A DNA stretch of 64,000 nt from Octopus vulgaris (lineage: Eukaryota): positions 10,106,001-10,170,000 of the forward strand of contig OX597834.1 of assembly GCA_951406725.2 (NCBI GenBank), read 5' to 3'. Positions 47,634 through 62,960 of the stretch are shown one piece after another. The notes beneath the pieces were generated by a model. The model was given only the letters and a program-made list of their open reading frames with translations, did no database searches and was not told the origin of the DNA. The position numbers were made by a program, and so were the translations under genes. The first letter of the stretch is position 1; each line of letters opens with the position of its first letter.

Positions 47634-47789
47634 GGGCATTGTTCGAACCTGAGAACGAAGGCCCGAAACTGGCGTTTATGAGTGCAATCGAAAAGGTGAA
47701 TCTTAAGAATGAGATTCTACCTCAGACGTTACTTATATACGACGTTTTGAAGGTTCAACCTCAGGATAGTTTTCAGGCATCAAATTTAG
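47634..47789 (+). CDS. Internal coding exon of an ionotropic glutamate receptor, kainate-type (GRIK-like), start of the amino-terminal (LIVBP-like) domain
   Basis: Acceptor ttcttcaatttctttttcag| and donor G|gtaagt; 156 nt, phase 1-1. Translation (G)ALFEPENEGPKLAFMSAIEKVNLKNEILPQTLLIYDVLKVQPQDSFQASNL parallels the kainate receptor pattern GGIF...ELAFRFAV..IN....LLPNT.L.YD...I...DSFEAS recalled for GRIK proteins. Confidence 0.88.
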
Positions 47790-47932
47790 GTAAGTCGTTT
47801 CCACATATGTCTTCTCATTATCAAGTTCCTTCCGTGATTTCAATTTATTTTCAGGTTTATACTTTTGAAATGTTTCAATATACATCATTACAATTTTGTT
47901 TTGTCTTCTAAAATTGCAAAGCTGAATCTAAA

Positions 47933-52454: not shown

Positions 52455-52932
52455 CGTGTGTGTGTTTGTGTGTACGTGTGTATGTTTGAATCTATGTATG
52501 TGTGTGTATGTGTACCTGCGTGTATGCATATCCTTACACACGCGCACATGCACGGACGTAGTCATCCATCTAAAGAGTCTTCCTCAATAAGTGCTATACT
52601 GGTCCAACCCTATATCTAAATAAAACAATGGCGAACGACTACGGAAGCATCTAATCTGTCTCTGAGAGTTGATGAAAAAATGTAATGTATAAAGTTTTTT
52701 CGAGTTAACGGATTAATGAAGTGCTGAAAAACTGTTGAATGGGAAAGGAAAACATTTTGGATTACTTTATTTTATCTTGGAAGGATCATTCTCTTTTAGT
52801 GCCTTGCTAGTGCCTTCTAGTAACTTATTCATATAACACACGCACTGGTCTGATTTCCATTCGTTTATTTACCTGTTCTTACTAAAATTTCCGTTGCGTC
52901 TAGCAACCTTTTTAATAGTCGTTGACTCTGTC

Positions 52933-53435
52933 AGTATGAGCAGGGCCTGGAAGAGTAGAGACATCAGACTCGCTACCAAATGCAGATTGGTGAATGCAAT
53001 TGTCTTCCCAATAGCAACATATGGATGCGAGACCTGGACACTAAAGAAAGCTGACCAGAAGAAAATTAATGCAGTCGAGCTTTGGTGTTGGGGAAGACTT
53101 TTACGGATTCCATGGACAGCGAGGCTCACCAATGGAGAATTTCTTAAGCAGATAAGGCCAAAAATGTCGCTAGAAGCTAGGATCACCAAGCATAGATTGG
53201 CATATTTTGGTTATATTATGCGGAGAAAATCCCTGGAGAAGGACATTATGCGGAGAAAATCCCTGGAGAAGGACATCATGCTCAGAATGGTCAGTGGCAA
53301 GAGAGGAAGAGGTGGACCAAGAACCCAAGATACCGGAATGGACATAGCCAATCTGAAAGAAGCGGCCTAGGATAGAACTGACTGGAGGACACTGATCCAA
53401 CGAGTGACCGAGAGTCGACTTCGACTGAGCGTATA
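52933..53435 (+). mobile_element. BovB-like RTE fragment, copy 2
   Basis: Same sequence as 37885-38430 with a 27-nt tandem duplication (IMRRKSLEKD twice) and a small deletion. Confidence 0.9.
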
Positions 53436-53535: not shown

Positions 53536-54900
53536 CTGCGGTTCTCAACTCGTTTGAGGTCAGGGTGCACTTAAACCCCCTACAAATAATCGTGGGCGCA
53601 GCATCCTCTTCTATCCTCTTTTACTTGTTTCAGTCATTTGACTGTGGCCATGCTGGAGCATCGCCTTTTTGTCGAGCAAATCTACCCCAGGACTTATTCT
53701 TTGTAAGCCTAGTACTTATTCTATCAGTCTCTTTTGCCGAACCGCTAAGTTACAAAGCATATACAAATTTCTAAGCTAAGTAACAGATAATAACACATGC
53801 CTTAAGGTTCTTCATTCTTGAACTCTTGGGAAACATTAGCTCGATGTGTCTTGGCAATTTCTTCAATGTTTGGGCGAATGTTTGAAAGCCAAACTCGCAT
53901 TTCTTCATCAATGCGTGTAAGTGTTCCTCGCTTTTTGTACTTGATGGTAGAAAGAGTGGAAAATCCCAATTTACGAAGATATGAAGTTGAAAATTGCAGC
54001 AGAACTATAACAGCTTTTTTTAGAAATCGAATCATATTCATCTTTTACAGAAATCCAGAAAGCTTCAAGTGACAATTTCTTGTATTTCATTATTAATCCA
54101 CGGTCAGTAGTTGTAGCAGCGAGTTTCTTTTCTTCTATCAATGTTAATTCGAAATCATTGGAAGTTTCCACGAATGGGTTTCTGATCCTGTCATATTGTT
54201 CAGTTTTCAGTGATAGGAAATACGAACTCAATTTTAATTCTAAACGGGAGTGTTTCATTTATGCCTGTTTCGCTTTGACTTAAAGGAAACATTTCCAAAT
54301 TCCCTTCGAAAGCTTTACGTTTCCAAATCTTTCATTTTGTCAGTGGACATTAGAATGTTTTCTTCTTTCCCTTCCATGCTAGTATTTAAAATATCGAGCT
54401 GCTGAAATATATTGGCCAAAAACTGTAAACTGGCCATCCAAAATTCGGAACGAAGAATGTCACAGAAATTAGATTGTTTCATTTCTTCAAAGAACACAAG
54501 AAGTTCGTGTACATGCGCAAGTACATTTCTTCTTGACAGCCACCTTACTTCGCTATGTAAAAGCAGCCGTTTGTATTGAGAATCCAAATCGTTACAAAAC
54601 TGTTCGAATATACGAGATTTGACAGGTCTTGTTTCAATAAAGTTTACCATCTGAACAACTTAACCTAAAACTTATTTTAGTTCTTCCCCTAATGTTTTTG
54701 CCATCATGGCCTCTCTATGAAGAAAGCAGGGAGTAACGATAGCATCCTTATTTTGTTTTCTTTTGTTTGTTTTTTTTGTTTGTTTGTTTTTTATAAAAGC
54801 TGTGAGACCCTTAACACAGTCTACCGTGGAAGGGGCTCCATCTATACAAATACCCACACATGATTTCCATGATAACTGCCATTTATCAAAGCATGTATTC
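53536..54900 (-). pseudogene. Decayed hAT (Charlie/Buster-type) transposase with one terminal inverted repeat
   Basis: Fragments GICIDGAP, CFLHREA, LLLHSEVRWLSR, FSTSYLRKLGFS, EMRVWLSNIRP in several frames with stops and frameshifts; terminus ctgcggttctcaa at 53536; interrupted by a SINE fragment (53605-53755). Confidence 0.9.
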
Positions 54901-55081
54901 AGAAAAAAAGAAACTGATTAATTGAGTGAAAGAGCTGAGAGCCATTTCTACTAACCACGCTCTCGTATGGTTAATGGAAGTGAGAGTGGAAGAGGACAAG
55001 AAAGAGGAATGTTAACGACGTTGAAGAGGAGCGTTACATGGTTAAAAAGTTTGTTGAAGTAAAAGGTAGAGTGACAAAAAT

Positions 55082-59718: not shown

Positions 59719-59960
59719 AGATTGGTATATTTTGGTCATATCATGAGGAGAAAATCCCTAGAGAAGGACATCATGCTCGGAATGGTCAGTGGCAAGAGAG
59801 GAAGAGGCCGACCAAGAAACCGCTGACTTGACACCATCAGGAGTGATACCGGAATGGACATAACCAATCTGAAAGAAGCGGCCCAGGATAGAACTGACTG
59901 GAGAATACTGACCCATCGAGTAACCGAGAGTCGACTTCGACTGAGTGGATAGATAGATAG
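59719..59960 (+). mobile_element. BovB-like RTE fragment, copy 3
   Basis: Same 3' end; (GATA)n tail; flanking direct repeat attacat. Confidence 0.85.
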
Positions 59961-60523
59961 ATTACATTCGTTAAAATTCAAACGCTGCCTGTGCCTGGGG
60001 TGTTTCAAATTCTGGCTATGCTTTGCGTAGTGTCAATCCCTCTTCCTAAACTACATATGCGTTTGTTCTAAAATCACTAGTCACCCACATTGGAAACAAA
60101 CCATGCAGCAAGTGTTACGTCAGAGTTTTCCTTCTCCTTGGGGGACGCCAAAAGAAGGATTAGAGTCTCTATCTCCTGCTTGGCAGTTGACTCTTCTGAG
60201 ATCATACGTTGTTTCAAAATGTTTGTCATTCGTCCAATGTGTCCAAAAAAAAAAAAGGCCTCTCCTTACCGAGCAGGGTCTGTTAAGGTTGCAGATGTGA
60301 ATCATGACAGTCCGTCGATGCAGCAGGTTCTATTAGTTACATGTAGCACACACATACACACTTTTACATGAAATTGTCATTGCAGTTAGATTATATATGA
60401 AAAATTAATTAGATTCTTGTAACTTTCTAATTTTCTCTCTAGACAACAATCTAGTGGGAAAGGATTCGTATATCAATTCCAGTTCGTTTTATTGAATCGG
60501 GGTAGATAGAAACTAAAGTGTAA

Positions 60524-60947
60524 GAAGGCGGCGAGCTGGCAGACACGTTAGCACGCCGGGCGAAATGCTTAGCGGTATTTCGTCTGCCGTTACGTTCTGA
60601 GTTCAAATTCCGCCGAGTTCGACTTTGCTTTCATCCTATCGGGGTCGATTAAATAAGTACCAGTTACGCACTAGGGTCGATATAATCGACTTAATCCGTT
60701 TGTCTGTCCTTGTTTGTCCTCTCTGTGTTTAGTCCCTTTGTGGGTAGTAAAGAAATAGGTATTTCGTCTGCCGCTACGTTCTGAGTTCAAATTCCGCCGA
60801 AGTTAACTTTGCCTTTTATCCTTTCTGGGTTCATACATTAAGTACCAGTTACGCACTGAGGTCGATATAATCGACTTAATCCCTTTGCCTGTCCTTGTTT
60901 GTCCCCTCTATATCTAGCCCCTTGTGAGCAATAAAGAAATAAGAAAT
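60524..60947 (+). mobile_element. SINE family B dimer
   Basis: Two units within TSD taaagtgtaa (60514-23, 60948-57). Confidence 0.9.
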
Positions 60948-61248: not shown

Positions 61249-61747
61249 TGTAACTAAAATACCGTTAATGTAAATATCCTTGCATGAAATTATGTTTCTT
61301 CTTTCTCCGACACTCATTTACTTATTTATTTATTTATTGTATAACACATTTATTAAGAATTAATTGGGTAGCTAGATCAGTCTTGATGGGACATTTCTAA
61401 TTCTTTTATAAATATTTACAGGAATTAAATGTAATGTTGACACAAAACCATTAATTTCCTTGTTTACTTAGAATGCCGTGTGATATATTTGGATGTATTA
61501 GCGCGTCTGCCTCAGACAAGAATAAAAAAATTCTCTGAGCTAAGGAATCATTCATCAACTTGACAATACTAACACTGCTTTGATTAGTGCTAATGAAATT
61601 TGTCCCAGTGGATGGGTCGAAATTAAAACCAATAAAACTAGACTTGCCGTCCGAGTTGCTTTTATTTTTTTCCTGCGAGACATCAGTGGCAGACGCCATT
61701 AGAAAAACTTATATCTGTTTGCAAAGCAGCCTTCACTTCCATCGCTA

Positions 61748-61813
61748 CCTGGTGGTTGCTGCCCGTTGACGAGGGACAAACATCCCGAAACTAGTTCGAG
61801 CGTATCACTCAGG
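61748..61813 (+). ncRNA. Type I hammerhead ribozyme-like motif (slightly degenerate)
   Basis: TTGACGA core (61766-72); helix II GGGA-caaaca-TCCC; GAAA (61787-90); palindromic helix III AACTAGTT; extended helix I cctg/gtggt/tgcccg pairing with cgagcg/atcac/cagg. Confidence 0.65.
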
Positions 61814-62054
61814 CTTGCGAGGAAGGGATGGCCTACCTTTGCAAATACTCCAAAGACACAGATATTGTGTTTCAAGCCAGCTAGAGACGAAGATCTCTTG
61901 GGGCTATAAAGCTACAGTAACAACCCCCTCCCCAATGTGGTTAGCCATGATAAGATGGCTTCTACACTTTACATACGCTACACAATTTTCCTGAAAGTAC
62001 TTGCCTTGAAAGAAACTGATTGAGACAATGGAAATTTAGTTCTAGCAATAATTG

Positions 62055-62960
62055 GGGTGGTAAGCTGGTAGAATCGTTAGCATGCCGGGCAAAATGCTTA
62101 GCGGTATCCCGTCTGCCGTTATGTTCTGTGGTATATTCTACCGAGGTCGACTTCGCGTTTCATCCTTTCGGGGTCGATTAAATAAATACCAGTTACGCAC
62201 TGGGGTCGATATAATCGACTTAATCCGCTTGTTCTTCTTTGTCCTCTCTGTGTTTAGCTCTGTGGGTAGTAAATAAATAGGTATTTCGTCTGCCGTTACG
62301 TTCTGAGTTCAAATTCCGCCAAGGTCGACTTTGCCTTTCACTCTTTCGGGGTCGATTAAATAAGTACCACTTATGCACTGGGGTCGATATAATCGACTTA
62401 ATCCGTTTGTTCTTCTTTGTCCTCTCTGTGTTTAGGCCCTTGTGGGTAGTAAATAAATAGTTATTTCGTCTGCCGTTACGTTCTGAGTTCAAATTCCGCC
62501 GAGGTTGACTTTGCCTTTCATTCTTTCGGAGTCGATTAAATAAGTACCAGTTACGCCCTGGGGTAGATGTAATCGACTTAATACCGTTGTCTGTCCTTGT
62601 TTGTCCCCTCTATGTTTAGCCCCCTGTGGGCAATAAAGAAATACGAATCATTAGCATGCCGGGTGAAATGCTTCGATAAATTATGTACCAGTTACGCACT
62701 GGGGTCGATATAATCGACTTAATACCGCTGTCCGTCTTTGTTTGTCCCCTCTGTGTTTAGCCCCTTGTGGGCAATAAAGAAATAAGAATCGTTAGCATGC
62801 CGGGCGAAATGCTTAGTTGCATTTCGTCCGTCTTCATGTTCTGAGTTCAAATTGTTCCTTTCATCATTTCGGGGTCGATAAAATAACTACTAGTCAAACC
62901 CTCGAGTCGATGTAATCGATTAACACACAATAAAACTCAAGACCTGTTACCTATAGTCGA
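62055..62960 (+). mobile_element. SINE family B multimer (about five units)
   Basis: Repeated tail-to-internal junctions at about 62280, 62460, 62645 and 62785. Confidence 0.85.

Follow-up and report, generated by a model that had tools for sequence, protein, structure and literature searches.

A lone, truncated copy of a young retrozyme-type repeat with a U3.G8 variant of the hammerhead core in a glutamate-receptor intron of Octopus vulgaris

The metazoan non-LTR retrozymes described by Cervera and de la Pena (2020, PMC7229834) have units of 150-450 bp with a GC content under 45%, and among the hammerheads treated there that of the axolotl, with a single-pair helix III, shows 6% cutting in 1 h as a monomer; the words "octopus" and "cephalopod" are absent from the main text of that paper. 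Insertions of Penelope-like elements (PLEs) are marked by 5' truncation, inversion and a 3' tail, and the Naiad PLEs proliferate without hammerheads (bioRxiv 10.1101/2021.04.23.441226). Concerning the catalytic core, the cleavage triplet follows the NUH rule (PMC3884650), U3-A8 covariants are reported to be active in vitro (Perreault 2011, PMC3088659) and occur naturally in PLEs, with about 1,300 in those of Schistosoma (Cervera and de la Pena 2014, PMC4209133), and among halophile sequences a natural U3/G8 core that bears an insertion is noted (PMC7151607). Intronic hammerheads of amniotes, in RECK and other genes, are described as few and deeply conserved (PMC6155905).

Here a type I hammerhead motif was analysed in a window of 64,000 nucleotides, the whole stretch from position 10,106,001 to 10,170,000 of the Octopus vulgaris contig OX597834.1 (forward strand); its parts and the surrounding features are given in Table 1. 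Direct reading of the motif agreed part by part with an earlier description drawn from the letters alone (the sequence-only reading), except that this had recorded a helix I with one mismatch, the C x A confirmed here, and had overlooked an additional U.G wobble at 61760. The invariant core (U4 G5 A6, A9, G12 A13 A14 and A15.1-U16.1) is present and is likewise invariant in 24/24 relatives, the GUU triplet satisfies the NUH rule, and the helix I bulge, UAU and an A-rich loop 2, between which a tertiary contact may form, are all found, the loop being one that we take to resemble that of the Schistosoma hammerhead. A U3.G8 wobble stands where a canonical type I hammerhead has a Watson-Crick 3-8 pair, and the motif is classed as a core variant, not as a canonical hammerhead. 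Helix III amounts in the monomer to one A-U pair with a CUAG tetraloop, and in a dimer to 6 bp. A degenerate hammerhead pattern matched once in the window against 0.01 expected, and our own covariance model, trained on 12 relatives of which none came from the window copy's own lineage (lineage A), returned the motif as its sole match in the window at 49.7 bits (E ~1e-14, a rough value). The unconstrained fold had a z of -1.33. The Rfam search that the sequence-only reading had proposed gave no match of any hammerhead family to the motif at the gathering threshold; at the same threshold it found 0 hammerheads in 11 control loci, even though canonical C3-G8 cores are present in 10 of these (HH9 came closest, E 0.43), and the miss is therefore uninformative, since canonical relatives are missed too.

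Table 1. Coordinates of the hammerhead motif, its parts, the repeat copy around it and the upstream exon of the host gene (positions in the window).
Feature	Position	Strand	Basis or remark
Upstream exon of kainate-type ionotropic glutamate receptor gene	47634-47789	+	Protein matches to kainate-type receptors
5'-truncated family A repeat copy, unit positions 63-358	61679-61974	+	95-97% identity, sharp ends, 29 other loci
Type I hammerhead motif, whole	61748-61813	+	Sequence, own covariance model, covariation
Helix I 5' strand: distal stem, 3-nt bulge, proximal stem	61748-61765	+	C x A mismatch family-wide; U.G at 61760 nearly private
CCTG, distal helix I	61748-61751	+	Sequence
Proximal helix I 5' strand	61760-61765	+	Sequence
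Core TTGACGA = U3 U4 G5 A6 C7 G8 A9	61766-61772	+	3-8 pair a U.G wobble, derived from U3-A8
Helix II GGGA/TCCC, 4 bp, with loop 2 CAAACA	61773-61776/61783-61786 (whole 61773-61786)	+	
GAAA = G12 A13 A14 A15.1	61787-61790	+	Sequence
Palindromic helix III ACTAGT	61790-61795	+	AACTAGTT with A14 and U17 included
Cleavage triplet GTT (GUU)	61794-61796	+	Predicted cut after 61796
Helix I 3' strand with UAU	61797-61813	+	CGAGCG 61797-61802, TAT 61803-61805, CAGG 61810-61813

Covariation supported both the type I architecture and the palindromic, dimer-type helix III. Across 24 hand-picked relatives 96.4% of cells were paired, with 71 double changes, a level reached by 0/500 shuffles; relatedness inflates such pair counts, but slid controls, which keep the relatedness, gave only 24-55% paired. 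By helix, pairing reached 92% in I, 99% in II and 100% in III. The 3-8 pair was UA in 14, UG in 7 and CG in 3 relatives, and the centre of the palindrome UA in 11, CG in 10 and GC in 3, so that the canonical relatives with compensatory changes sought by the sequence-only reading do exist. The hammerhead motif in the window is real, and is not repeated elsewhere in it.

The motif lies within a 296-bp copy of a repeat, here family A, that lacks the first 62 nt of the 358-bp unit, ends at the commonest 3' end of the family and shares 95-97% identity with 29 other loci, with sharp boundaries (from a first-look search with 710 candidates, 40 of them scored). The unit length was taken from tandem copies, which are spaced by 357-358 bp and follow one another head to tail, without an ORF in between; most insertions contain 1-2 units. 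Both orientations are present in 45/102 loci; in direct runs the 3' end falls at unit positions 350-358 in 75/150 and a tail of 40-60 nt follows in 55/150, the 5' ends being scattered and unenriched at the cut site (1/150). No LTR layout was seen in the 102 family A loci, and the window element is overlapped only by stop-to-stop frames of 70-85 aa. The unit has a GC content of 43.7%, and its circular monomer folds at a z of -5.4 (vs 40 shuffles). The window element is thus a lone, 5'-truncated copy of a young, non-coding 358-bp repeat with an insertion anatomy of Penelope type, and the proposals that it is a retrozyme-type monomer and that copies and tandem arrays would be found in the genome have held up, as a truncated monomer, 29 further loci and 358-bp dimers in the family. 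The joint between unit end and unit start was recovered in all four contig sets from sequencing runs, the RNA origin of two of them being only guessed, and tandem DNA copies would explain the joint equally well. Contigs of the runs X16, X17 and X5, which are labelled as other organisms, contain family A together with C17 variants, and one loose end there shows a U3-A8 core joined to a GAGG/CCTC helix II as in the sister families.

Family A resembles the metazoan non-LTR retrozymes of PMC7229834 in its short non-coding unit with a type I hammerhead, in its GC content, in its tandem and dispersed copies, in the presence of PLEs in the genome and in its strongly folding circular monomer; it departs from them, as they are described there, in that the U3.G8 wobble and GUU are fixed in an amplified subfamily and that runs rarely exceed 2 units. 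A one-bp helix III, a palindromic tetraloop and the need for a dimer are shared with axolotl HHR_Amex1 and the newt satellite hammerhead of the same paper, unlike the octopus core variant and the C x A mismatch in proximal helix I. The insertions match the PLE anatomy of bioRxiv 10.1101/2021.04.23.441226 in truncation, inversion and tail. Family A shares with the hammerheads of PLE pseudo-LTRs (pLTRs) the 5' truncation, the 5' inversion, the 3' tail and the palindromic helix III, but has no ORF and, with its 4-bp helix II and bulged helix I, is not of their minimal form. As with the U3-A8 covariants of PMC3088659 and PMC4209133, its direct ancestors and most of its octopus relatives are U3-A8; unlike the covariants reported there, those of the octopus sit in full-architecture retrozyme hammerheads, are the majority by pattern count, and are accompanied by both single-step states, U3.G8 and C3xA8, each amplified. 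We found neither octopus retrozymes nor an amplified U3.G8 family described in the literature searched, the supplements of which may list cephalopods, and within that literature the family is a previously undescribed variant of the animal non-LTR retrozymes.

The sequence-only reading had explained the unusual core as decay of an active C3-G8/GUC ancestor through three transitions, the third being the mismatch in helix I. This is contradicted by the family. The exact U3.G8/GUU core with family A helices occurs in 240 copies and the C3/GUC core with the same helices in 0, and no canonical family A revertants with C3 and C17 were found; position 3 was other than T in 1 copy (A), and position 17 in 5 copies when the pattern ending was made independent of G8. 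A core-free search gave 287 matches, and among the first 100 listed, counted by eye, U3 was present in 100/100, G8 in 79 (78 with U17, 1 with G17) and A8 in 21 (18 with GUC, 3 with GUU), the U3-A8/GUU copies being marked as true intermediates by diagnostic columns. A tree of 39 rows, a subsample that included 10 of 78 long G8/U17 rows and in which positions 3, 8 and 17 were masked, gave the order U3-A8/GUC, U3-A8/GUU, U3.G8/GUU, with an unstarred support of 98/76 for the branch joining the G8 rows, and with the window copy in the youngest subgroup. A clade uniting U3.G8 with C3-G8 rows was rejected (AU p 1.1e-7), as was one that held the A8 rows by themselves (p 1.5e-5). The core change was therefore A8>G, from nearest ancestors that were U3-A8, with U3 and U17 family-wide. 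The C x A mismatch is likewise no decay of this copy, being found throughout the lineage, and the outgroup shows C x U at this place. Source elements were where the variant core originated, and several hundred copies of it followed.

Several families are homologous to the window unit from end to end (scores of 127 and 212 vs a shuffle maximum of 33), and such families form arrays of 5 units. Searches of the genome with generic core patterns gave 4615 matches for U3-A8 (control 20), 280 for C3-G8, the triplet there being restricted to GUC or GUA (control 4), to which come 435 exact copies of a family whose loop 3 is longer, 295 + 55 for U3.G8 (controls 8, 14) and 132 for C3xA8 (control 10), the patterns not being identical to one another and all counts being floors. 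By pattern count U3-A8 is thus the commonest hammerhead core in this genome, and descriptors fixed on C3-G8 would miss most of its hammerheads. Among the first 100 U3-A8 matches listed, 50 lay in the terminal repeat of one Penelope-like element and 34 in a 360-bp retrozyme family. This element (L236:2061-5139; G000:C1:26208500-26215500) shows that autonomous PLEs with hammerheads are present in the genome: it carries an ORF of 784 aa with reverse transcriptase (RT) and GIY-YIG regions and a U3-A8/GUA hammerhead in the terminal repeat. An acceptor-like stretch ending in AG directly precedes its U3, which recalls the end of the Drosophila virilis Penelope intron at helix I (PMC4209133). U3.G8 with GUC was found in more distant families (L244, L245, L247, L183, L155, L246), and the wobble state therefore arose more than once. 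In a sister lineage, one well-supported clade that arose from U3-A8 unites the C3-G8 families with a young C3xA8 subfamily, and C3xA8 may there precede or follow C3-G8. This mispaired retrozyme subfamily (L278-L289, e.g. G000:C4:80857199-80857949) includes a tandem trimer and supplied about 20 of the first 100 C3xA8 matches listed; elsewhere, eight C3xA8 hammerhead-like cores lie head to tail within 340 bp (G000:C5:125262556-125262895). A very young 353-bp retrozyme family (L069-L088; 435 exact copies, 99-100% identity) combines a canonical core with a helix III of two pairs and is the best candidate for present activity; one of its copies adjoins a family A copy (L004).

On balance we lean towards a reading in which the window holds a lone, truncated copy of retrozyme type, pasted in by PLE machinery, from a family that cuts slowly as a dimer, the window copy itself being silent. 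We infer that in tandem transcripts of the source copies the palindromic helix III strands of two units would pair with each other, forming a double hammerhead to be cut after GUU; cutting would probably be slow, because the 3-8 pair is a U.G wobble. Either the freed 358-nt unit or read-through RNA that had escaped cutting would then be the template for reverse transcription, the inserted copies being 5'-truncated or inverted, and insertion into the receptor intron was likely the work of Penelope-like enzymes acting in trans, which we infer from the anatomy seen in the copies. Folding of the natural family dimer placed the cross-paired form 4.5 kcal/mol above the energy minimum. Between the U3-A8/GUC ancestor and the window subfamily, 0/34 unconditioned stem and core positions changed vs 27/266 outside (one-sided p 0.033), which suggests that the fold was kept under selection over this interval; for the time after A8>G alone the constraint was not significant (0/34 vs 10/288, p 0.32), in a test without power. 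Amplification is no proof of activity, since the mispaired C3xA8 subfamily was also amplified recently. The 5' ends, which do not accumulate at the cut site (1/150), also speak against this reading, as does the rejection of the candidates for an autonomous partner described below.

The main alternative, which we consider unlikely while giving it serious weight, is that C17>U and A8>G inactivated the ribozyme of the source elements and that the family has since spread from uncut read-through transcripts, the fold persisting through the short time elapsed or through some service to the reverse transcriptase. A broken 3-8 pair lowers hammerhead cleavage by orders of magnitude, and a large loss of rate would be expected here. 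Two of the four hammerhead changes fixed since the ancestor fall at positions 8 and 17, and both the non-significant constraint after A8>G and the spread of the C3xA8 subfamily agree with a dead ribozyme, as does the proliferation of the hammerhead-free Naiad PLEs (bioRxiv 10.1101/2021.04.23.441226). Yet both changes stay within tolerated chemistry, U17 being allowed by the NUH rule (PMC3884650) and U.G being able to pair, and no invariant or stem position is altered in the subfamily majority. Array length also seemed to favour loss of activity, family A runs having at least two cores in 5/85 cases and three in none, compared with 19/73, 10/34 and 6/23 in Watson-Crick families (Fisher p 0.0006-0.011). 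The case that this makes for a loss of activity through G8 is weakened by the U3-A8/GUC copies, which are short as well: short runs predate G8, with two cores in direct tandem at 1/17 U3-A8/GUC loci, and run counts based on exact patterns under-detect runs in older families.

A more far-reaching proposal can be made tentatively, and we give it somewhat less credence than the slow dimer reading: that the 3-8 pair has passed, in subfamilies amplified separately, through each of the four states U-A, U.G, C x A and C-G, and that the U3.G8/GUU subfamily of the window is a working, slowed, dimer-only ribozyme. Were both parts true, the families would offer a direct test in nature, showing how a catalytic RNA passes through a fitness valley by compensatory changes and what amount of cleavage a retrozyme requires in order to spread. 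If U3.G8 works, a core state usually omitted from search descriptors is functional in nature; if neither intermediate, U3.G8 or C3xA8, is active, the spread of a family does not depend on cleavage. Related, recently active families that differ at exactly this tertiary core pair bear on the part that hammerheads play in mobility of Penelope type, since natural dimers can be compared with one another and related to copy number and array length. The value of the locus lies in this natural series of core variants, not in its link with a receptor.

It is improbable that the unit is a solo terminal repeat of an autonomous Penelope-like element yet to be located and not a self-standing retrozyme. Truncation, inversion and tail are of PLE type, most insertions comprise 1-2 units, and retrozymes are reported to derive from pLTRs (bioRxiv 10.64898/2026.07.22.740005); however, the tandem copies stand head to tail without an intervening ORF, homologous families form arrays of 5, and the only widely spaced same-strand pair examined, at L031, is split by an unrelated LINE fragment. 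Three candidate partners or sources were rejected. The PLE beside L246 was dismissed, family A sequence being absent from 19 other loci of that element and from 6 longer stretches; the end of family D gave likeness scores of 20-29 vs a shuffle maximum of 37; and the 3.3-kb insert at L031 is LINE-like and unrelated, not an autonomous element. This insert (L031:3143-6430, with a zf-RVT match) lies inside a family A unit, of which about 21 bp are duplicated (unit positions 121-141).

The window copy lies in a gene for a kainate-type ionotropic glutamate receptor, as judged from the protein matches of the upstream exon, 2/3 of which are named Octopus proteins. The host intron starts at 47790, extends past the window and measures 41,914 nt, the next exon beginning at window-equivalent position 89704; because the exons on both sides lie on the plus strand, the hammerhead is in sense orientation within the 41.9-kb intron, in agreement with the sequence-only reading. 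It thereby resembles the sense type I motifs in amniote introns but, unlike the few and deeply conserved ones of PMC6155905, belongs to a young repeat of many copies. No second full hammerhead was found in the 264 kb scanned, which cover part of the receptor gene; at distances of 89 and 179 kb there are two minimal motifs, whose palindromes differ. Two consecutive hammerhead units, by which an active retrozyme copy has been recognised (Li et al. 2026), are seen in 8/89 family A runs, the window copy having one. From the subfamily majority it differs at 8 of 296 columns, one difference weakening helix I, namely the U.G wobble at 61760, where 23/24 subfamily rows have C. The predicted probability of the correct helix I register is about 0.14, compared with 0.5-0.99 for three of its closer relatives; since low values are also obtained for family B (0.01), which is canonical, and for the outgroup L215 (0.07-0.17), the calculation is a weak predictor. 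The window copy is probably silent, since it needs a dimer partner, of which the scanned 264 kb hold none, and since its helix I is weakened; the insertion would then be neutral, and any cutting of the pre-mRNA by it is probably negligible.

Its sense orientation and the precedent of RECK and other introns (PMC6155905) would fit a co-opted copy that cuts or tunes the glutamate-receptor pre-mRNA, as conserved amniote intronic hammerheads may do, but this is very improbable for a young insertion, already weakened in helix I, that is one among hundreds of dispersed copies and a partnerless monomer with a one-pair helix III; moreover, 42-44% of Xenopus retrozyme copies are intronic anyway. No link between the motif and receptor regulation was found, the position of the element in this intron is likely accidental, and the location contributes little to the significance of the hammerhead. 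A chance resemblance to a hammerhead, to which the Rfam result and the modest z of the unconstrained fold might have pointed, has next to no probability and is refuted by the covariation across homologous families and by our own covariance model, Rfam missing canonical relatives as well.

Tandem repeats flank the window element at 60574-60941 and 62103-62814, with periods of 180-185 bp and 141 bp and related copies at other loci, and the broken frames at 52837-53370, 59736-60032 and 53971-54917 may represent fragments of RTE-type LINEs and hAT-type transposases, which they resemble.
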